Below are positions 16,531 through 60,911 of a stretch of 64,000 nucleotides of DNA, in pieces. The translations under genes were made by a program, and so were the position numbers. The notes under the pieces were generated by a model. The model had not been told where the DNA came from and did not search any database. It saw nothing but the letters and a program-made list of their open reading frames with translations. Origin of the DNA: Escherichia coli (GTDB lineage Bacteria; Pseudomonadota; Gammaproteobacteria; Enterobacterales; Enterobacteriaceae); NCBI RefSeq assembly GCF_003018235.1, contig NZ_CP027437.1, one strand, 5' to 3'. Every line of letters begins with the position of its first letter. Within the stretch, counting starts at the first letter, position 1.

Positions 16531-16630
16531 ATGCCGGATGCGGCGTGAACGCCTTATCCGGCCTACAAAAATCTTGCCAATTCAATATATTGCAGGACCA
16601 CGTAGGCCTGATAAGCGTAGCGCATCAGGC
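16531..16630. repeat. pair of REP-like palindromic units between fepA and entD
   Basis: gccggatgcggcgtgaacgccttatccggcctac and gtaggcctgataagcgtagcgcatcaggc are classic enterobacterial REP sequences in opposite orientation. Confidence 0.5.
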
Positions 16631-17437: not shown

Positions 17438-17590
17438 CTACTTCTTCGGTTCGTAAGCGAGAACAGCCTTAAACTCAATATTACGTTCCTTCACCGTAAA
17501 CTCACACAGCGAGTCGCGGACCAGAAGCGTAAATCCCAGCACCGTTAAACACAGCACTATGACTGCCACAAGGGCATATTTCGTCAGCAT
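17438..17590 (-). CDS. hokE: Hok-family membrane toxin, copy 1 (one substitution versus HokE: G25R)
   Basis: 50 codons [50 protein letters not shown]; overlapped out of frame by the mok-like ORF 17502..17735. Confidence 0.8.
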
Positions 17591-17735
17591 GTTTATATTG
17601 CCTCCATGCGAAGAAGGGACTACCATCCGAGTTGTTGAGGTTCGGAGTGGCAGCCCCAGGATTGATAGAAATATCTCCTGGGGCTTCATCTTTCCAGATC
17701 TCAGAGTTAACCTGAAACCGGAAAGCTTCAGGCAC
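17502..17735 (-). CDS. Mok-like overlapping reading frame of hok copy 1
   Basis: 77-aa ORF in a different frame covering most of hok, the arrangement known for hok/sok loci. Confidence 0.5.
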
Positions 17736-17940
17736 CCGCAGCTATCTTACCTTTCCTCAACAAAATAGCTGTTTATTTATACAGCAAATCCTGTTTCGGA
17801 CTTCTGTTGGCAAAACTGATCATTGCCCTTAAAACGACATCGCCCGCAGCCATTGCTGACCGCGGGCGAAAGTGTAAAACAGGTGCCTTACCACCCTGAC
17901 CTGACAACCGGATATGCGGGGATTGCTCCCCGCACAACGG

Positions 17941-18093
17941 CTACTTCTTCGGTTCGTAAGCGAGAACAGCCCTGAACTCAATATTACGTTCGTTCACCGT
18001 AAACTCACACAGCGAGTCTCCGACCAGAAGCGTAAATCCCAGCACCGTTAAACACAGCACTATGACTGCCACAAGGGCATATTTCGTCAGCAT
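17941..18093 (-). CDS. Hok-family toxin, copy 2 (K34N and K41R versus HokE)
   Basis: [50 protein letters not shown]; mok-like ORF 18005..18193 overlaps. Confidence 0.75.
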
Positions 18094-18193
18094 GTTTATA
18101 TTGCCTCCATGCGAAGAAGGGACTACCATCCAAATTGTTCAGGTTTGGGTAGGTAGCCCCAGGGTTGATAGAAATATCGTCCTGGGGCTTCAT
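18005..18193 (-). CDS. Mok-like overlapping frame of hok copy 2 (N-terminus differs from copy 1)
   Basis: 62-aa overlapping [16 protein letters not shown]... Confidence 0.4.
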
Positions 18194-18444
18194 CTTTCCA
18201 GACCTCAGAGTTAACCTGAAACCGGAAAGCTTCAGGCACCCGCTGTTATCTTACCCTTCCTCAGCAAAATAGCTGTTTATTTATACAGTGAATCCTGTTT
18301 CGGACTTCTGTTGGCAAAACTGATCATTGCCCTTAAAACGACATCGCCCGCAGCCATTGCTGACCGCGGGCGAAAGTGTAAAACAGGTGCCTTACCACCC
18401 TGACCTGACAACCGGATATGCGGGGATTACTCCCCGCACAACGG

Positions 18445-18597
18445 CTACTTCTTCGGTTCGTAAGCGAGAACAGCCTTAAACTCAATATTACGTTCCTTCA
18501 CCGTAAACTCACACAGCGAGTCTCCGACCAGAAGCGTAAATCCCAGTACCGTCAAACACAGCACTATGACTGCCACAAGGGCATATTTCGTCAGCAT
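18445..18597 (-). CDS. Hok-family toxin, copy 3 (identical to the HokE sequence I recall)
   Basis: [50 protein letters not shown]; here the hok frame stays open upstream to 18741 and begins with the Mok N-terminus (MPEAFRFQV...), i.e. the mok and hok frames are fused. Confidence 0.75.
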
Positions 18598-19028
18598 GTT
18601 TATATTGCCTCCATGCGAAGAAGGGACTACCATCCAAATTGTCTGGTTTGGAGTGGCAGCCCCAGGGTTGATAGAAATATCTCCTGGGGCTTCATCTTTC
18701 CAGACCTCAGAGTAAACCTGAAACCGGAAAGCTTCAGGCACCCGCCGTTATCTTACCCTTCCTCAGCAAAATAGCTGTTTATTTATACAGTGAGTCCTGT
18801 TTCGGACTTCTCACTCCTCATTTGATCAACTGAAGCTGAACCCGTTTTTTTCTGCATGCCTCAATCGTCAAAATTCTTCGCCACCAGCCAGCTCTGCCAT
18901 AACTTGTCACATTGCAAAAGTAGCCAAATTGCTTCAGTCACCATCACCAAAAAAAAGAAACATTCCAGAACTTCCGCATCTCGCCCAGCCGCTCCGACTT
19001 CTATACTGAATAGAAAACGCCAACATAA

Positions 19029-23085: not shown

Positions 23086-24462
23086 TTATTTCCGACGCAG
23101 CGTTTTAAACGCTACAAACAGGAATACAATCCACACCGGTAGCAGAATCGCTGACAAGCGCATATCATCCATCGTGCACATCAGCAGCAAAATCATGCCG
23201 AGGAAGGCGATGCAAAGATAGTTGCCGAACGGATAGAGCAGCGCCTTAAACTGTGTTTCACGTCCCTGACGTCGCATCGCCGCGCGAAAACGCAGATGCG
23301 CCAGGCAGATCATAATCCAGTTCAACAGCAGCGTTGCTACCACCAGCGCCATCAGCAGACCAAACGCTTTTTGCGGCAGCAGATAGTTGATTAACACCAC
23401 CAGCGAAGTGATGGCTCCGGAAAGCATCAGCGAGTTAATCGGCACGCCGCGACGGCTGACGCGAGTCAAAAACTTCGGTGCATTACCCTGCACAGAAAGG
23501 CCAAACAGCATCCGGCTGTTAGAGTAAACCCCGCTGTTATACACCGATAACGATGCTACCAGAATGACGAAGTTCAGCGCAGAAGCTACCACGTTGCTGT
23601 CGAGATTATGGAAAATCATCACAAACGGGCTACTGTTGGATTTCACTTCCACCCACGGATAGAGTGCCAGTAAAACCACCAGTGAACCGATGTAAAACAG
23701 CAGGATGCGATAAACCACCTGATTCACTGCTTTAGGGATGCTTTTTTCCGGATCGCGCGCTTCAGCGGCAGTAATCCCAATCAGCTCCAGACCGCCGAAG
23801 GAGAACATAATTACCGCCAGCGACAAAATCAGCCCATTCCAGCCGGTGGCAAAAAAACCACCGTAACGCCAGAGGTTGTCGATACTGGCTTTCTCGCCGC
23901 CGTGACCAGAAAACAGCAGCCACAGACCAAAGCCGATCATGCCGATGATCGCCAGCACTTTAATCAGCGCAAACCAGAACTCAGTTTCGCCATATAAGCG
24001 CACGTTCACCAGGTTAACGGCGTTGATGATAATAAAGAAGGCGGCTGCCCAAATCCACGTTGGAACATCCGGGAACCAGTACTGCATATAGATGCCCGCA
24101 GCGGTCAACTCTGCCATTCCCACCAGCACGAACATCACCCAGTAGTTCCAGCCAGAGAGGAAGCCCGCAAACGGTCCCCAGTATTTATAGGCAAAGTGGG
24201 CAAATGAACCGGATACCGGCTCTTCGACCACCATCTCGCCGAGCTGGCGCATAATCAGGAAAGCGATGATCCCAGCGACGCCGTAGCCCAGCAATACAGC
24301 CGGACCCGCCATCTGAATCGCCGGGCCAATGCCAAGAAACAGACCAGTACCAATTGCGCCACCCAGCGCAATCAGTTGAATATGACGGTTATGTAATCCG
24401 CGATGAAGCGTCGGCTCTTGATTCGACGCAGTATCTTCCGATACGGTTGACGCGTTTTTCAC
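23086..24462 (-). CDS. pheP: phenylalanine-specific APC-family permease PheP
   Basis: Track ORF 23086..24498; start placed at the in-frame GTG giving (V/M)KNASTVSEDTASNQ; the choice of start is uncertain. Confidence 0.85.
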   Translation of the reverse strand: MKNASTVSEDTASNQEPTLHRGLHNRHIQLIALGGAIGTGLFLGIGPAIQMAGPAVLLGYGVAGIIAFLIMRQLGEMVVEEPVSGSFAHFAYKYWGPFAGFLSGWNYWVMFVLVGMAELTAAGIYMQYWFPDVPTWIWAAAFFIIINAVNLVNVRLYGETEFWFALIKVLAIIGMIGFGLWLLFSGHGGEKASIDNLWRYGGFFATGWNGLILSLAVIMFSFGGLELIGITAAEARDPEKSIPKAVNQVVYRILLFYIGSLVVLLALYPWVEVKSNSSPFVMIFHNLDSNVVASALNFVILVASLSVYNSGVYSNSRMLFGLSVQGNAPKFLTRVSRRGVPINSLMLSGAITSLVVLINYLLPQKAFGLLMALVVATLLLNWIMICLAHLRFRAAMRRQGRETQFKALLYPFGNYLCIAFLGMILLLMCTMDDMRLSAILLPVWIVFLFVAFKTLRRK

Positions 24463-24563: not shown

Positions 24564-27500
24564 TTATTTCCGTACCCGATGTCGGTGCAGCCACATCAGC
24601 TTATACGCCGCCGGGATAATAAACAGCGACAGCAAAGGCGCGGTGATCATGCCGCCAATCATCGGCGCGGCAATCCGGCTCATCACCTCTGAACCTGCTC
24701 CCGTTCCCCACAGAATCGGCAGCAGACCAGCGATAATCACCGCCACCGTCATCGCTTTCGGGCGCACGCGCAGGACCGCGCCGTGATACAACGCCTCATC
24801 CAGCTTCTGCTCGCTGAATGTTTGCGGATTATTCAACGACGGCTCGGCCTCTATGGCGTGACGTAAATACATCAGCATCACCACGCCAAATTCGGCGGCG
24901 ACCCCGGCAAGGGCAATAAAACCGGTGCCCGTCGCCACGGAAAGATGAAAGCCCATCCACCACAGCAACCAGATGCCACCCACCAGCGCAAACGGTACGC
25001 TGCTGATAATCAGCAACGCTTCGCCCACCCGACGGAACGCCAAATACAACAGCACGAAGATGATCATCAACGTCATCGGCACCATGAGTTTCAGCTTATG
25101 GTTGGCGCGTTCCAGTAGCTCGAACTGCCCGGAGAATGCCACGCTGGTGCCCGGTTTTAACTGTACTTTTTCAGCTATCGCTTTTTGCAGATCGTGAACC
25201 ACCGACACCATGTCACGATCGCGGGCATCGATATAAATCCAGCTCGTCGGGCGCGCATTCTCGGTTTTCAGCATCGACGGTCCGGTAGAGACTTTAACGT
25301 CGGCCACGTCTGCCAGGGTGATTTGCTGCTTCATCGGCGTCAGGATCGGCAACTGGCGCAGCGCCTGCGGACTATCGCGCCAGCTTTGCGGATAACGCAG
25401 ATTAATTGGATAACGGGCAATCCCTTCCACCGTTTCGCCAACCATCGCCCCGCCCACCGCAGAAGTCACAAACAACTGCACATCCGCCACCGTCATACCG
25501 TAACGTGCGGCTTTTTCACGGTTAATCTCAACGTTGATATAGCGCCCACCTTCCAGCCGCTCGGCAAGCGCAGAAGCTACGCCTGGCACCGTTCGCGCCA
25601 CTTCTTCAATTTGCTCAGCCATCGCGTCGATATCCGCCAGCACAGTGCCGGAAACTTTAATGCCGATAGGGCTTTTAATGCCGGTTGAGAGCATATCGAT
25701 ACGGTTACGAATTGGCGGCACCCACAGATTCGCCAGCCCCGGCAGACGCACGGTGTTATCCAGTTCCTCAATGATTTTGTCCATCGTCATGCCTGGCCGC
25801 CACTGATCTTGTGGCTTAAGCTGGATGGTCGTTTCTACCATCTCCAGCGGAGCAGAATCGGTGGCGGTTTCCGCTTTCCCGGTTTTGCCAAATACCCGCG
25901 CCACTTCAGGTACGCTCATAATCAGCTTGTCGGTTTTTTGCAGCATACTCGCCGCCTCTGCTGCGGAAATCCCCGGCAGCGTCGATGGCATATACAACAA
26001 GTCGCCTTCATTGATCTGCGGTAAAAATTCCCCGCCAACTTTATTGAGCGGCCAGAGAACCGTCAGCACCGAAAGCGCTGCCACCAACAGCGTGGTTTTC
26101 GGCCAGTGCAGTACTTTCAGCAACAGCGGATGATAAACACGAATCAAAAAGCGATTGAGCGGGTTACTGCTTTCCGGCGGAATTTTGCCACGGATCCAGT
26201 AGCCCATCAGGATCGGGATCACTACGATCGCCAGTAGCGCCGCGCCCGCCATCGCATAGGTTTTGGTGAACGCCAGCGGGCCAAACAGACGCCCTTCCTG
26301 CCCTTCCAGGGTGAAGATCGGGATAAACGACAACGTGATAATCAGCAGACTGATAAACAGCGCCGGCCCCACTTCAACAGATGCATCGGTGATCACCTGC
26401 CAGCGCGTTTTATTATCCAGCGTGGCGTCAGGATGCTGGTGCTGCCACTCTTCCAGCCGTTTATGTGCATTCTCGATCATGACGATAGCGGCATCGACCA
26501 TCGCCCCGACGGCAATAGCAATACCGCCCAGCGACATAATATTGGCGTTCAGTCCCTGAAAGTGCATGACAATAAAAGCAATACACAACCCCAGCGGCAA
26601 CGAAATAATCGCCACCAGCGCCGAGCGCACATGCCAGAGAAACAGCGCACAGACTACCGCCACCACAATAAACTCTTCCAGCAACTTGCCGCTGAGGTTG
26701 TCGATGGCGCGGTCAATGAGCTGGCTGCGATCGTATGTTGTAACTATCTCCACGCCTTCCGGCAGACTACTTTTCAGCGTTTCCAGTTTGTCTTTCACGG
26801 CGGCGATCACTTCTCGGGCGTTTTTGCCGGAGCGCAGGATCACCACCCCGCCCGCCACTTCGCCTTCGCCGTTCAGTTCGGCAATGCCCCGGCGCATCTC
26901 CGGGCCAATCTGGACCTTCGCAACATCGCGCAGATAAACGGGCACGCCATTTTCACTGGCTTTTAAAACGATGTGATTAAAGTCGTCGAGCGTTTGCAGA
27001 TAGCCGCTGGCGCGCACCATATATTCCGCTTCCGCCAGTTCGATCGACGAACCGCCCGCTTCCTGGTTTGAAGCATCCAGCGCGCTTTTTACTTCGGCGA
27101 GACTGATGCCATATTGCGCCAGGCGCTGAGGATCGATAACCACCTGATACTCTTTCACCACACCGCCTACCGACGCCACTTCCGCAACGTCAGGAATGGT
27201 TTTCAGCTCATATTTGAGAAACCAGTCCTGCAATGAGCGTAAATCGGCAAGATCGTGCTTACCGCTGCGATCCACCAGTGCATATTCATAGATCCAGCCA
27301 ACACCCGTGGCATCTGGCCCCAGCTCGGCGCTGACTCCCGCAGGGAGCTTACCCTGTACCTGGTTGAGGTACTCCAGCACCCGCGAACGCGCCCAGTACG
27401 GATCGGTGCCATCTTCGAAAATGACATACACATAAGAGTCGCCAAACTGCGAGAAACCGCGCACAGTCTTCGCGCCAGGCACCGACAACATGGTGGTGGT

Positions 27501-27707
27501 TAGCGGATAAGTCACCTGATTTTCAACGATTTGCGGTGCCTGACCGGGATAGCTGGTTTTAATAATCACCTGCACATCGGAGAGATCCGGCAGCGCATCC
27601 ACTGGCGTGTTAATGATGGTCCAGGTGCCCCAGATACTCAGAAACAACGCGCCCATCAGTACCAGAAAACGGTTCGCCACCGAGCGACGAATAATCCATT
27701 CAATCAT
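24564..27707 (-). CDS. cusA: RND copper/silver efflux pump CusA
   Basis: 1047-aa ORF with twelve predicted membrane spans and RND architecture. Confidence 0.95.
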
Positions 27708-27718
27708 TGGTTATTCCC

Positions 27719-28942
27719 TCAATGCGCATGGGTAGCACTTTCAGAGCGCATCCGCTCCAGTGCGCCAGAAATATTGGCTTCGGAATCAATCAGGAACAAG
27801 CCGCTGGACACCACCTTTTCACCTTCCGCCAGACCAGAGCGTAACGCGGTGACGCCTTGCGATGCCTGGAAAACGGCAACGCGTTTCGGTACAAAGCGCC
27901 CGTCGGCATCAACGGTAATCACCCGCTGTTCGTTGCCGGTATCAATCAGCGCCTGTGACGGAATGAGCAGCATCGGTTCGCTGGCGGTGTTGAGTTGCAA
28001 CCAGGCGTTCATGCCCGGTTTTAGCGCCTCGTCGGCGTTGTCGACTTCCAGACGCAGTTGCAGCGTGCGGGTCGCGGCATCCACGCCGGGTAGCAGGGTC
28101 CATTTGCGAATGGTGAGTGTTTTATCAGGTCGCGCCGGAACGGTGAGCGTAAACTGCGAGGCATCTTTCACCAGCCAGGCGATGGACTCCGGGATCGCGG
28201 CAGTGATCCACACCGGGTCCATACCCTGAATTTTCGCTACCACATTATCTTTGGCGATATTCATTCCCGCGCGCAGATCAAACGCGGTGATCACGCCATC
28301 AATGGGCGCTTTGAGCGTAAAGCGAGTCTGGATTTTTTGCGTAGCGATCAGGCGGCGAATATCCGCCTCCGGCATTCCCGCCAGTCGCAGCCGCTCAAGA
28401 ATGCCTTCAGTCTGGGTCGCCGTACCGCCGGTTTCGCGCAGCAGTAAATACTCACTCTGCGCTTCCACCCAGTCGGGAATGGTCAGGTCGAGAAGCGGTG
28501 TGCCCTTTTGCACTTTATCGCCCACGGTAAGCGGATACACCTTGTCGATAAACCCGGCAGCGCGAGCCTGCACAATGGCATACTGATACTCGTTGTAACT
28601 GACATTCGCCGGGAAACTCTGGGCAAAAGTCAGCGGCCCGCGCGTGACGGTAGCCGTTTTCACCCCCAGATTCTGCGTCTGGGTCGGGTCAATGCGTACA
28701 CCAGACGCAGAACTCTCTTCATCGGCATATTTCGGCACCAGATCCATATCCATAAACGGCGATTTACCTGGTTTATCGAACCGCGTATTGGGATACATCG
28801 GGTCGTACCAGAATAAGATTTTACGTTCTGCGGTCGGCGTTTTTTCTGCGGGCGGTTCAGCCTTTGCAAACCAGGTAAAACCTGCCGCAGAAATAATACC
28901 GCCCGCGATCATGCTGCCGATAATAAGCGCGATTTTTTTCAT
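27719..28942 (-). CDS. cusB: membrane fusion protein CusB
   Basis: 407-aa ORF with an N-terminal signal/anchor; recognised as CusB. Confidence 0.9.
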   Translation of the reverse strand: MKKIALIIGSMIAGGIISAAGFTWFAKAEPPAEKTPTAERKILFWYDPMYPNTRFDKPGKSPFMDMDLVPKYADEESSASGVRIDPTQTQNLGVKTATVTRGPLTFAQSFPANVSYNEYQYAIVQARAAGFIDKVYPLTVGDKVQKGTPLLDLTIPDWVEAQSEYLLLRETGGTATQTEGILERLRLAGMPEADIRRLIATQKIQTRFTLKAPIDGVITAFDLRAGMNIAKDNVVAKIQGMDPVWITAAIPESIAWLVKDASQFTLTVPARPDKTLTIRKWTLLPGVDAATRTLQLRLEVDNADEALKPGMNAWLQLNTASEPMLLIPSQALIDTGNEQRVITVDADGRFVPKRVAVFQASQGVTALRSGLAEGEKVVSSGLFLIDSEANISGALERMRSESATHAH

Positions 28943-28957
28943 CTCATTAAACCTGGG

Positions 28958-29290
28958 TTACTGGCTGACTTTAATATCCTGTAATAAAGAAAGGTTGCCC
29001 TGCTGGACAAAATTAAACGCCACTTTGTCGCCGGTTTTAATTTCACTCATTTTCGTCTGCGGGGTTATAGTAAAGCGCATGGTCATCTCCGGCCATTTCA
29101 CGGCAGCAATCGGATCGTGATGGATGGTGATTTTTTTGCTTTCCAGATCAATACCTTTTACCACGCCAGTGGCGCTAATAACCTGCGGTTGTACTTCGCT
29201 CATGGTTTCATGATGATGTTCGTTAGCCTGGGTATTAAAGCCAATAACGGTAAACAGACTGAACATTGCGACTTGCAGTGCTTTTTTCAT
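28958..29290 (-). CDS. cusF: periplasmic copper/silver chaperone CusF
   Basis: 110-aa ORF with a signal peptide and the MTMRF metal-site region. Confidence 0.9.
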   Translation of the reverse strand: MKKALQVAMFSLFTVIGFNTQANEHHHETMSEVQPQVISATGVVKGIDLESKKITIHHDPIAAVKWPEMTMRFTITPQTKMSEIKTGDKVAFNFVQQGNLSLLQDIKVSQ

Positions 29291-29313: not shown

Positions 29314-30696
29314 TTATTGCTGCCAACCGCCACCAAGTGCGGTATATAAAGAAATTTCGTTCACCTGACGGGCATAATTCAGGTCAAGTAAAGTTTGTCG
29401 GGTTGCAAATAAAGAACGTTCGGCATCCAGCACTTCCAGATAACTTACTGCGCCGTGCTGATATAATGCCCGCGCCCGTTGCAGAGTAATTTGTAGCGAC
29501 GCCAGATAACGCTGCTGGGCGCTAATTTGATCGTTCAGGCTTTGACGTAATGCCAGCGCATCTGCCACTTCTTTAAAGGCGTTCTGGATTTTCTGTTCAT
29601 AATTCACCACCGACTGCTGCTGGCGAATTTCGGCGATATCCAGATTGGCCTGGTTACGTCCGGCATTAAAAATGGGGATCTCAATTTTGGGTATAAAATT
29701 CCACATCCCGCTGCTGGCGTTAAATAATGACGACAGATCGCTGCTGGCGGTTGATATTCCGCTGGTCAGGCTGATAGACGGGAAAAATGCCGCGCGTGCA
29801 GCACCAATATTGGCATTAGCCGCTATTAACGCATGTTCAGCTTCCATAATATCCGGGCGCTGCAATAAGATTTGCGACGACAAGCCCGCCGGTAATTTAA
29901 CGCTTTGCAGGCTGTCGCTGTTTACTGTCTGCGCTTGCGGCAGCTTGCCGTAGCTTCCCAATAACAGTTGCAATGCATTATTCGCCTGCGCCAGTTCCCC
30001 CTGACGTTTAGCGATGTCGCCGCGGGTACTTTCAATCACCCCGCGAGCCTGTTCCAGCGCCAGAACATTGCTGCTACCGGTCAACAGTTGTTTTTCGACA
30101 AACGCATATGACTGCTGATAATTACGCAGCGTTTCTTCGGCGATTTGCAATTGCGCATACGCCAGCTGCTGATTGAAATAGCTTTGCGCGACATTAGAAA
30201 CCAGCAGAATATGCACCGCGCGCTGGGCTTCCTCAGTGGCTAAATAATTTTGGCGCTCGGCTTCGCTCATGTTCTTTAAGCGACCGAAAAAATCGAGATC
30301 AAAGCTGGCGTTAAGGCCAGTCGAGAACTCCCGCGTCGTGGCTGAATCGCCTTTAAGATTGCCGCTCCAGCTGCCGCTGCCCTTGCCATTGAGCTGTGGG
30401 TAGCGGTCGGCATCGGTCAGACGATATTGCGCCCGCGCTTCCTGCACTTTCAGCGTCGCCATGCGCAAATCCCGGTTATTCACCAGCGCCTCGCTAATCA
30501 GCGTCTTCACCTGATTATCAACAAAAAAGGTGCGCCAGCCCGCGTTCTGGTAGTTATCTGCTGCGTTAACCAGGCCGTTCTGGTTGAGTGAGAACTGCGG
30601 CGGCACGGGCATTGCCGGGCGCTGATAAACCGGTGCTAGTGAACAACCGGTTAGCGCAAGGGCCACACAAAATGGCAGAAGTTTACAAGAAAACAT
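29314..30696 (-). CDS. cusC: outer membrane factor CusC (lipoprotein)
   Basis: 460-aa ORF with the lipobox LTGCSL; TolC-like. Confidence 0.9.
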   Translation of the reverse strand: MFSCKLLPFCVALALTGCSLAPVYQRPAMPVPPQFSLNQNGLVNAADNYQNAGWRTFFVDNQVKTLISEALVNNRDLRMATLKVQEARAQYRLTDADRYPQLNGKGSGSWSGNLKGDSATTREFSTGLNASFDLDFFGRLKNMSEAERQNYLATEEAQRAVHILLVSNVAQSYFNQQLAYAQLQIAEETLRNYQQSYAFVEKQLLTGSSNVLALEQARGVIESTRGDIAKRQGELAQANNALQLLLGSYGKLPQAQTVNSDSLQSVKLPAGLSSQILLQRPDIMEAEHALIAANANIGAARAAFFPSISLTSGISTASSDLSSLFNASSGMWNFIPKIEIPIFNAGRNQANLDIAEIRQQQSVVNYEQKIQNAFKEVADALALRQSLNDQISAQQRYLASLQITLQRARALYQHGAVSYLEVLDAERSLFATRQTLLDLNYARQVNEISLYTALGGGWQQ

Positions 30697-30765
30697 AGGC
30701 TCATAATTTCTGGTGATTTTATGCCGCCAACTTTACTCGCCAGGCTCTGATTTTCCGGTGACAGG

Positions 30766-30787
30766 AAAATGACAAAATTGTCATTTT
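30766..30787. promoter_or_regulatory. CusR box: perfect 22-bp palindrome between divergent cusC and cusR
   Basis: AAAATGACAA AA TTGTCATTTT is a perfect inverted repeat in the cusC/cusR intergenic region. Confidence 0.7.
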
Positions 30788-30852
30788 GCCAATAAGCGAT
30801 TGCCATCTGATCCCGCTACTCTAGAATTGCCCGGGCAACATGCGGAGGAAAT

Positions 30853-31536
30853 ATGAAACTGTTGATTGTCGAAGATGAAAAGAAAACCGGAGAATACTTG
30901 ACCAAAGGGTTAACCGAAGCCGGTTTTGTGGTCGATTTGGCCGACAACGGGCTGAATGGCTACCATCTGGCGATGACCGGTGATTATGACCTGATAATCC
31001 TCGATATTATGCTGCCAGACGTGAACGGCTGGGATATCGTGCGTATGTTGCGTTCCGCCAATAAAGGGATGCCGATTCTGTTGCTTACCGCGCTTGGCAC
31101 CATTGAACATCGCGTCAAGGGGCTGGAGTTGGGGGCAGATGACTACCTGGTGAAGCCATTCGCTTTTGCTGAACTGCTGGCACGGGTGCGCACATTACTG
31201 CGGCGCGGGGCGGCGGTGATTATCGAAAGTCAGTTTCAGGTTGCCGATTTGATGGTCGATCTCGTCAGCCGCAAAGTCACCCGCAGCGGTACGCGCATCA
31301 CTCTGACCAGTAAAGAGTTTACACTGCTGGAGTTTTTCCTTCGCCATCAGGGCGAAGTGCTGCCCCGCTCGCTTATCGCCTCGCAGGTGTGGGACATGAA
31401 TTTCGACAGCGACACTAACGCCATTGATGTGGCGGTGAAGCGGCTGCGTGGCAAAATCGACAACGACTTTGAGCCGAAGCTGATTCAAACCGTGCGCGGC
31501 GTGGGCTATATGCTTGAGGTGCCGGATGGTCAGTAA
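30853..31536 (+). CDS. cusR: OmpR-family response regulator CusR
   Basis: 227-aa ORF with a receiver domain (conserved Asp in LIILDIMLP) and a winged-helix C-terminus. Confidence 0.9.
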
Positions 31537-32968
31537 GCCATTTCAGCGCCCGTTTTCGCTGGCAACCCGCCTGACCTTTTTTATCAGCCTGGCCACCATC
31601 GCGGCGTTTTTCGCCTTTGCCTGGATCATGATTCACTCGGTAAAAGTGCATTTTGCTGAGCAGGATATTAATGATTTAAAAGAGATTAGCGCCACACTCA
31701 AGCGCGTTCTTAATCATCCCGAAGAGACACAAGCCCGACGCTTAATGACGCTGGAAGATATCGTCAGTGGTTATTCCAATGTGTTGATTTCCCTGGCAGA
31801 TAGCCAGGGTAAAACGGTGTATCACTCCCCCGGTGCGCCGGATATCCGCGAGTTTACGCGTGACGCCATACCCGATAAAGACACGCGGGGCGGCGAGGTG
31901 TATCTCCTTTCCGGCCCGACGATTATGATGCCGGGCCACGGTCACGGGCATATGGAACACAGCAACTGGCGGATGATTAACTTGCCGGTTGGCCCGTTGG
32001 TGGACGGCAAACCGATTTATACGCTCTACATCGCGCTTTCGATCGATTTTCATCTTCATTACATAAATGATTTGATGAATAAACTTATTATGACCGCATC
32101 GATCATCAGCATCCTGATCGTCTTTATCGTGCTGTTGGCGGTACATAAAGGTCACGCACCGATCCGCAGCGTCAGCCGTCAAATCCAGAACATTACCTCG
32201 AAAGATCTCGACGTTCGCCTTGACCCGCAGACCGTGCCGATTGAGCTGGAACAGCTGGTACTGTCGTTCAACCATATGATCGAGCGTATTGAGGATGTCT
32301 TTACCCGCCAGTCCAATTTCTCAGCGGATATCGCCCACGAAATTCGTACACCAATTACGAATCTCATAACGCAAACGGAAATCGCCCTCAGCCAGTCGCG
32401 CAGCCAGAAGGAGCTGGAAGATGTGCTCTACTCTAATCTCGAAGAGCTGACGCGAATGGCGAAAATGGTCAGCGATATGCTGTTTCTCGCCCAGGCCGAT
32501 AACAACCAGTTAATCCCCGAAAAGAAAATGCTCAACCTGGCGGATGAAGTCGGCAAAGTGTTCGATTTTTTCGAGGCATTAGCGGAAGATCGCGGCGTGG
32601 AGTTGCGGTTTGTTGGTGACGAGTGTCAGGTTGCGGGCGATCCGCTGATGCTGCGTCGGGCGTTAAGCAACCTGCTTTCGAACGCCCTGCGTTATACGCC
32701 GCCCGGAGAGGCGATTGTAGTGCGCTGCCAGACGGTCGATCACCAGGTGCAAGTTTCCGTCGAAAACCCCGGTACGCCCATTGCGCCCGAGCACTTACCG
32801 CGATTGTTTGACCGTTTCTACCGCGTTGACCCCTCCCGCCAGCGAAAAGGCGAAGGTAGCGGCATTGGTCTGGCGATAGTGAAATCGATTGTTGTCGCGC
32901 ATAAAGGCACGGTTGCAGTAACGTCAGATGCTCGGGGGACAAGGTTTGTTATCACATTACCCGCTTAA
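31526..32968 (+). CDS. cusS: sensor histidine kinase CusS
   Basis: Start ATG 31526 ([10 protein letters not shown]) overlaps the cusR stop; H-box [11 protein letters not shown]. Confidence 0.9.
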
Positions 32969-39739: not shown

Positions 39740-41810
<2,071 letters not shown>

Positions 41811-60224: not shown

Positions 60225-60911
60225 TTAGAAGTTCAGATTTTTCAGTGCATTCAGTGCAGAGCCCACATCCTCAGCGTCGCGCAGGGACAGTGCGCCATAG
60301 CCCCCGGCCATGAATGCTTTGGCCTGGGTACGGGAGAGTCCGACATCACGCAGGACTCTTTCGATTTTTTTCTGTTCGGGGATTTCCCCGCGGGCCAGCG
60401 CGTTCTTGACGTCGCTGATCCGCGCCTCGTCGTTAGACGGAAACGTCACCAGACTGACTTCCCAGAGGTCGATTTCTTTCAACAGAAAGGCTTCTTTGCT
60501 CCGGTCGTATTCCCAGTCTTTCAGGACGTACCCAATAGAAAGGCCGGTTAACGAACCGGCCTTCATGTGTGCATGTGCGCGTTTTGCGAGGGGATCATCA
60601 TCAATAAGCAACCGTCCCCTGACGTAAAGCCCGACATCGTCTTCCTTCATTTCGGTGTAAACACCGATGGGTTCATCCATGCGGTGCTGCCAGAGCAGCG
60701 CAGGTAACGCTTTTCTGTCACTCCACGCCCGCAGGGAAGCAGCAAATGCCCCGGACATCACCACATCATCGTGGCTGTCCTTTACACCAAAGACGGAGCC
60801 ATACCCTTCAAACTCACCGGAGTCACTGACAGATTTCAGACTCAGCGGTACATCAAGACGTTGTTTCGTCTGCATTGGCGTTATCCTTCTGCTTACCGGC
60901 TTTACTGCCAT
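60225..60911 (-). CDS. prohead maturation protease, HK97 family
   Basis: 228-aa ORF between portal and capsid; the true start may lie at an internal Met, since the track ORF overlaps the portal end by 59 nt. Confidence 0.75.
   Translation of the reverse strand: MAVKPVSRRITPMQTKQRLDVPLSLKSVSDSGEFEGYGSVFGVKDSHDDVVMSGAFAASLRAWSDRKALPALLWQHRMDEPIGVYTEMKEDDVGLYVRGRLLIDDDPLAKRAHAHMKAGSLTGLSIGYVLKDWEYDRSKEAFLLKEIDLWEVSLVTFPSNDEARISDVKNALARGEIPEQKKIERVLRDVGLSRTQAKAFMAGGYGALSLRDAEDVGSALNALKNLNF

Follow-up and report, generated by a model that had tools for sequence, protein, structure and literature searches.

The inverted repeat at positions 30766-30787 of the analyzed Escherichia coli DNA (a stretch of 64 000 nucleotides, referred to as the window) is almost certainly the operator of the CusS/CusR system, to which phosphorylated CusR binds, activating both flanking divergent operons, and which HprR also occupies according to the published cross-talk. 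This is a textbook CusR operator, intact, in its usual location and already known, and the CusR box of this strain raises no new question. In this strain, the chromosomal copper/silver efflux regulon is of the standard kind and its operator is intact, which helps annotation and prediction of Cu/Ag tolerance. The sequence, the genomic context, the identity to K-12, the conservation across genera and the geometry come from the present analysis; binding, copper dependence and the cross-talk with HprR are taken from published papers.

The repeat lies in a 156-bp spacer that separates cusCFBA, on the minus strand, from cusRS, on the plus strand:

24564-27707, minus strand: cusA, RND permease
27719-28942, minus strand: cusB, periplasmic adaptor
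28958-29290, minus strand: cusF, periplasmic metallochaperone
29314-30696, minus strand: cusC, outer-membrane channel, 460 amino acids
30766-30787, no strand: CusR box, arms AAAATGACAA (30766-75) and TTGTCATTTT (30778-87), centre AA (30776-77)
30853-31536, plus strand: cusR, OmpR/PhoB-family response regulator, 227 amino acids, D51 present
31526-32968, plus strand: cusS, Cu(I)/Ag(I) sensor histidine kinase, 480 amino acids, H271 present

The full 22-nt sequence is AAAATGACAAAATTGTCATTTT and its reverse complement is AAAATGACAATTTTGTCATTTT, with positions 11-12 (AA) failing self-complementarity, so that 20 of the 22 positions are symmetric and the site is a 10+2+10 inverted repeat in which both arms are perfect. 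A preliminary description of this DNA had presented the site as a perfect 22-bp palindrome; the two perfect 10-nt arms stand, but the central AA is not self-complementary and, therefore, the 22 bp as a whole do not form a perfect palindrome. In the outward direction, the symmetry stops at the arm ends. The same description had the repeat centered between the two divergent operons, which is correct: its centre (30776.5) is separated by 80.5 nt from the cusC start codon and by 76.5 nt from that of cusR. In the 6-4-6 notation, the box reads ATGACA-AAAT-TGTCAT (ATGACAAAATTGTCAT) and occupies positions 30769-84.

This inverted repeat is clearly non-random. The pattern AAAATGACAANNTTGTCATTTT, with up to three mismatches allowed, has a single match in the 64-kb window and none in 100 dinucleotide-preserving shuffles, and a search of the 64 kb for inverted repeats whose perfect arms measure 10 nt or more and whose spacer does not exceed 6 nt yields just three, the chance expectation for such repeats being, by our own arithmetic, about 0.4 per window and about 0.001 per 156-bp spacer. 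A chance palindrome, or a hairpin or terminator that involves no regulatory protein, is accordingly an extremely improbable explanation. The repeat does fold as single-stranded DNA (-7.7 kcal/mol, z-score -3.1), but the shuffles yield no match, a terminator scan of the spacer detects no terminator-like site, the stem is A+T-rich and located upstream of both predicted transcript starts, and the conservation across genera (see below) tracks the identity of the arm bases, not merely their pairing, with the bases between the arms varying freely. An intrinsic terminator or hairpin was rejected also on its defining features: the combination of a G+C-rich stem and a T-run within the transcript is not found at 30766-30787.

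The identity of the site as a CusR operator follows from several lines of evidence. According to the passage in PMC11195947 that cites Yamamoto & Ishihama 2005, E. coli CusR prefers the palindrome AAAATGACAAnnTTGTCATTTT between cusRS and cusC(F)BA; positions 30766-30787 agree with this published box at 20 of the 20 specified positions, and the match is unique in the window. In K-12, ChIP-chip across the chromosome in the presence of 2 mM CuSO4 yields a single strong CusR peak, in the cusC-cusR spacer; gSELEX with unphosphorylated CusR likewise yields a single peak in this spacer, where a peak of HprR is found as well; in the Reg-Seq analysis, cusC is activated in a copper-dependent manner; and the copper induction of cusC requires CusRS. 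The label of CusR box in the preliminary description is thus upheld by the complete match to the published sequence, the cusC and cusR flanks, and the K-12 ChIP-chip and gSELEX peaks in the same spacer. Furthermore, work on AgrR has produced a family consensus, the 6-4-6 inverted repeat ATKACANNNNTGTMAT (PMC7380067), which ATGACAAAATTGTCAT matches without a mismatch. Another sequence in the window, ATGACGGTTATGTAAT at 24382-24397, in the 5' part of pheP and near the end of cusA, has one mismatch to ATKACANNNNTGTMAT, but this is probably a chance match because 0.48 such matches are expected per window.

The gSELEX data also bear on the possibility that the site is mainly an operator of HprR (YedW; the peroxide/HOCl-responsive paralogue) and not of CusR, which appears very unlikely. 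In the K-12 genome, HprR has its strongest peak in the cusC-cusR spacer, HprR is reported to recognize the CusR sequence with a different affinity, and the hiuH/hprR box, CATTACAAAATTGTAATG, is likewise organized as 6-4-6; however, it is CusRS that is needed for the copper induction of cusC, the half-sites of the box are TGACA as opposed to TTACA in the HprR/PcoR-type sites, and hprRS is absent from the 64-kb window. HprR is an additional user of the CusR box, not a replacement for CusR.

All six cus genes score far above the NCBIfam cut-offs of equivalog or subfamily models across their full length, and in the RefSeq annotation of syntenic E. coli chromosomes, the same six genes are annotated as cus. 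CusR is identical to K-12 CusR over all 227 residues, CusS differs from its K-12 counterpart by 11 substitutions, and CusC differs by 10 residues and a 3-aa C-terminal extension. The spacer is identical to that of K-12 MG1655 at 155 of the 156 positions; the sole difference, G30765 (A in K-12), is outside the box. The 'fully functional circuit' of the preliminary description is consistent with the sequence, given six intact, full-length open reading frames, a CusR with the K-12 sequence and the presence of D51 in CusR and H271 in CusS. The 460-aa CusC ends with WQQ (29314-29322), which is absent from the 457-aa K-12 protein, and its signal peptide begins with MFSC (codons 30688-30693) compared with MSPC in K-12, two codons being changed. 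Identity to the best E. coli match is about 97.5% in the cus region, compared with 99.2% at 32-39.8 kb.

The spacer is found in 5333 of the 5426 complete E. coli genomes, 4652 of 5334 E. coli records match it at 99% identity or more, and a 40-mer that includes the box and 18 nt on its right is exactly conserved in 5145 records. The difference between 5150 genomes for the 40-mer and 5333 for the spacer is not evidence of broken boxes because the 40-mer misses genomes with G30788A, a substitution directly to the right of the box (as in SCU-109) that accounts for most of the genomes missed in that search. The six variant spacers that were sampled, K-12 included, show no changes within the box. 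The whole spacer is nearly invariant in the species and, therefore, a perfect box in a single genome says little about selection. The preliminary description had read strong purifying selection from that perfection; the actual evidence for constraint is the conservation between genera.

In E. coli O19:H7 730V1 (locus L005, 1976-3000, corresponding to about position 30744 of the window), a copy of IS903B is inserted in the cusC-cusR spacer, splitting the box, the TGACA and the CTCTG (both described below) from the cusC -10 element and leaving the box and the cusR side intact; cusC itself is interrupted by ISKpn26 in this strain. Elsewhere in the window, a copy of IS100 (IS21 family, istA/istB) at 39777-41728 disrupts envY, with collinearity to E. 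coli VCSW7 lost at 39776 and regained at 41729; a 21-nt inverted repeat at 39839-39859 is located within this copy, just upstream of istA. Positions 42199-64000 belong to a myovirus-type prophage that is about 97% identical to the Shigella phages SfIV/SfII and the Escherichia phage vB_EcoM-720R4, and its start coincides with the end of the VCSW7 homology, in the middle of a tRNA-Arg gene of VCSW7; ARAGORN detects no intact tRNA in the whole window. Another inverted repeat with perfect 10-nt arms, AAGGCCGGTT-AACG-AACCGGCCTT at 60540-60563, lies inside the prophage. Three tandem copies of the sok antitoxin RNA (Rfam; hok/sok type I toxin-antitoxin) occupy 17582-18743, where VCSW7 has two annotated hokE genes, and a match to the ES036 sRNA is found at 16568-16609.

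Conservation between genera was assessed by comparing the pattern AATGACAANNTTGTCATTTT with 100 044 species genomes (one per species), which yielded at least 120 loci, an incomplete and biased sample. Among the matches listed, 11 are linked to cus or sil genes, and most of the others are unrelated A+T-rich or LacI-type palindromes. The latter suggest a different reading, namely, that the site is the operator of a LacI-family repressor: AAAATGACAACGTTGTCATTTT, with the same 10-nt arms and a CG centre, is found beside LacI/GalR-like genes (assigned by eye from the N-terminal sequences) in a Comamonadaceae metagenome-assembled genome, Xylophilus and Klebsiella spallanzanii (L032 1529-1550, L044 3299-3320 and L120 4221-4242). 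Sequence alone is, thus, not diagnostic, but those sites have a central CG whereas the cus site has AA, no LacI-type gene adjoins 30766-30787, and this site stands in the cusC-cusR context with family-specific extra blocks, which leaves a LacI-type operator with a negligible probability. The AAAATGACAACGTTGTCATTTT sites probably are unrelated LacI-type operators that mimic the CusR box.

Among the matches listed, the CusR box is located between homologues of cusR and cusC in E. whittamii, Citrobacter koseri, Kosakonia, Pseudocitrobacter, Budvicia and four species of Providencia. In Budvicia and Providencia, the arms are kept while the surrounding spacer has diverged, with CusR 70-81% and CusC 41-61% identical. 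The scan pattern demanded 18 of the 20 arm bases, so that the invariance of the arms is in part by construction, but the flanking blocks and the geometry are free of this bias. The two central bases differ among the loci (AA, AG, TG, TT, AT and CG). The sil and pco loci on plasmids were reached through a CusR protein search; a blastn search of plasmids with the 156-bp spacer retrieved E. coli chromosomal-type copies only and no sil or pco. A non-divergent layout is seen in Shimwellia pseudoproteus (L028 5520-5541), where the box, with the extra TGACAGG, closely follows cusS and precedes a co-directional open reading frame for a Met/His-rich, periplasmic-looking protein of 113 amino acids, which is followed by efflux genes.

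A gapless alignment of 12 promoters anchored on the box (cusC of nine taxa together with silC, silE and pcoE) provides a comparative map in which, on the cusC side, the conserved control region reaches about 20 bp past the 22-bp box. The elements on the two sides of the box are:

30759-30763, no strand: extra TGACA half-site, in direct-repeat orientation, one helical turn (11 bp) cusC-ward of the left-arm TGACA
30745-30751, no strand: CTCTGaT block, at about -22 to -28, with the extra half-site on one side and the cusC -10 element on the other
30735-30730, minus strand: predicted cusC -10 element TAAAGT (TAnnnT), with T1, A2 and T6 conserved at a gapless fixed distance
30800-30827, plus strand: sigma-70-like cusR promoter, -35 TTGCCA (30800-05), 16 nt, -10 TAGAAT (30822-27)

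The extra TGACA, which was outside the search pattern, is invariant in 5 independent lineages and recurs at silC, in mirrored form at silE and as an imperfect TGACT at pcoE. The CTCTG block (30745-49) is invariant in the 5 lineages as well, and its CTG is shared by silE, pcoE and Shimwellia. A30730, T30734 and A30735, which form TAnnnT on the minus strand, are likewise invariant in the 5 lineages; the distance from the box centre to this element is 41.5 bp in all aligned loci, and silE and pcoE have a perfect TATAAT there. The conservation of TAnnnT, along with TATAAT at the identical distance in silE and pcoE, points to 30735-30730 as the cusC -10 element. The cusC transcript would then start near 30723, so that the box centre would fall at about -53.5 and the extra TGACA would cover -40 to -36, a stretch in which no conserved -35-like hexamer is present. 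CTGTCA (30764-30759, minus strand) was considered as the cusC -35 element and ruled out because it would leave a 23-bp spacer to the conserved -10. On the opposite side, the cusR promoter matches the consensus at 10 of the 12 positions in a consensus scan and its TAGAAT is invariant in 11 aligned loci, so that the cusR transcript is predicted to start near 30834, with the box centre at about -57.5; both this position and that of -53.5 depend on the predicted -10 elements. In Providencia and Budvicia, the box lies about 13 bp closer to the promoter on the cusR side.

The cusC promoter has no recognizable -35 element, and RNA polymerase is probably brought to it with the help of the extra blocks. 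There is about an even chance that the operator is larger than the box and asymmetric, extending over approximately 30745-30787, such that the third half-site and the CTCTG, present on the cusC side only, would give it direction, with a PhoB-like, -35-replacing activation of cusCFBA, and cusRS relying on its own -35 geometry. A search of the accessible literature found no test of the extra blocks at E. coli cusC.

In K-12, Cu(I)/Ag(I) activates CusS, CusR is phosphorylated and binds the box, which turns on cusCFBA and cusRS; because the sequence is identical, this mechanism can be transferred to the window. Periplasmic Cu(I) or Ag(I) would cause CusS to phosphorylate CusR at D51, and a symmetric CusR dimer would then occupy the two inverted half-sites in the cusC-cusR spacer. 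Activation to the left would produce the CusCFBA efflux pump, and activation to the right would increase the expression of cusRS, a case of positive autoregulation. On the cusC side, the box, the TGACA at the -35 position, the CTCTG and the TAnnnT -10 element would follow one another at a fixed helical phasing, and CusR might make further contacts at the promoter-proximal TGACA, located where the cusC promoter would have its -35 element. With its own -35/-10 pair, the cusR promoter would represent a separate geometry.

Typical members of the OmpR/PhoB family bind tandem direct repeats, head-to-tail. The core of the cus site is an inverted repeat, and therefore a symmetric dimer on the DNA is implied (discussed in PMC7380067). 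No CusR-DNA structure is present in the copy of the PDB that was searched, where the nearest entries are DrrD, PrrA, MtrA and the PcoR DNA-binding domain.

Compared with the K-12 cus locus, nothing of substance differs in the window: all 22 bases of the CusR box, the flanking genes and the CusR protein are shared, and the differences come down to G30765 and two codons at the start of cusC. The silC-silR region of the plasmid-borne sil system, controlled by SilR, has the same divergent layout, with the box ATAATGACAA-TG-TTGTCATTTT, and shares with cus the extra TGACA and the TAGAAT on the regulator side; one arm base and the spacer between the arms differ. The silE and pcoE promoters also contain the 6-4-6 core, the third half-site 11 bp nearer the promoter and the -10 element at the same 41.5 bp (pcoE carries TGACAAnnTTGTCAT; PMC11195947); unlike cus, each has one mismatch in the core and serves a single gene in a single direction.

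More distant relatives are the sites of PcoR/CopR, HprR, AgrR of C. metallidurans, LciR of Legionella and CusR of P. paraeruginosa, all of which are 6-4-6 repeats that match ATKACANNNNTGTMAT. These regulators are, like CusR, metal-responsive members of the OmpR/PhoB family, orthologues or paralogues with about 50-70% identity, and their half-sites are mostly TTACA compared with TGACA at cus. Additional blocks between the repeat and the -10 element are not new for this regulator family, with LciR and AgrR as the precedents. In the case of AgrR, binding and activation depend in part on an in-phase direct repeat adjacent to the inverted one (PMC7380067). In the case of LciR, short conserved blocks between the repeat and the -10 element are each required for copper induction and have been proposed to steer activation in a single direction (PMC6989116); of the two sides of its spacer, LciR activates only one. 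Linsky et al. (PMC6989116) described 'two shorter conserved sequences' for LciR, and the CTCTG block may correspond to the second. The cus site has the features of a 'copper box', namely, the 6-4-6 repeat and the fixed distance to the -10 element, with blocks or a direct-repeat half-site in between. The Pho box and other operators of the OmpR/PhoB family share with it the regulator fold and the phasing of half-sites by about 11 bp, and in promoters of the PhoB type, which lack a -35 element, the activator site stands in its place, an arrangement that the cusC promoter appears to resemble.
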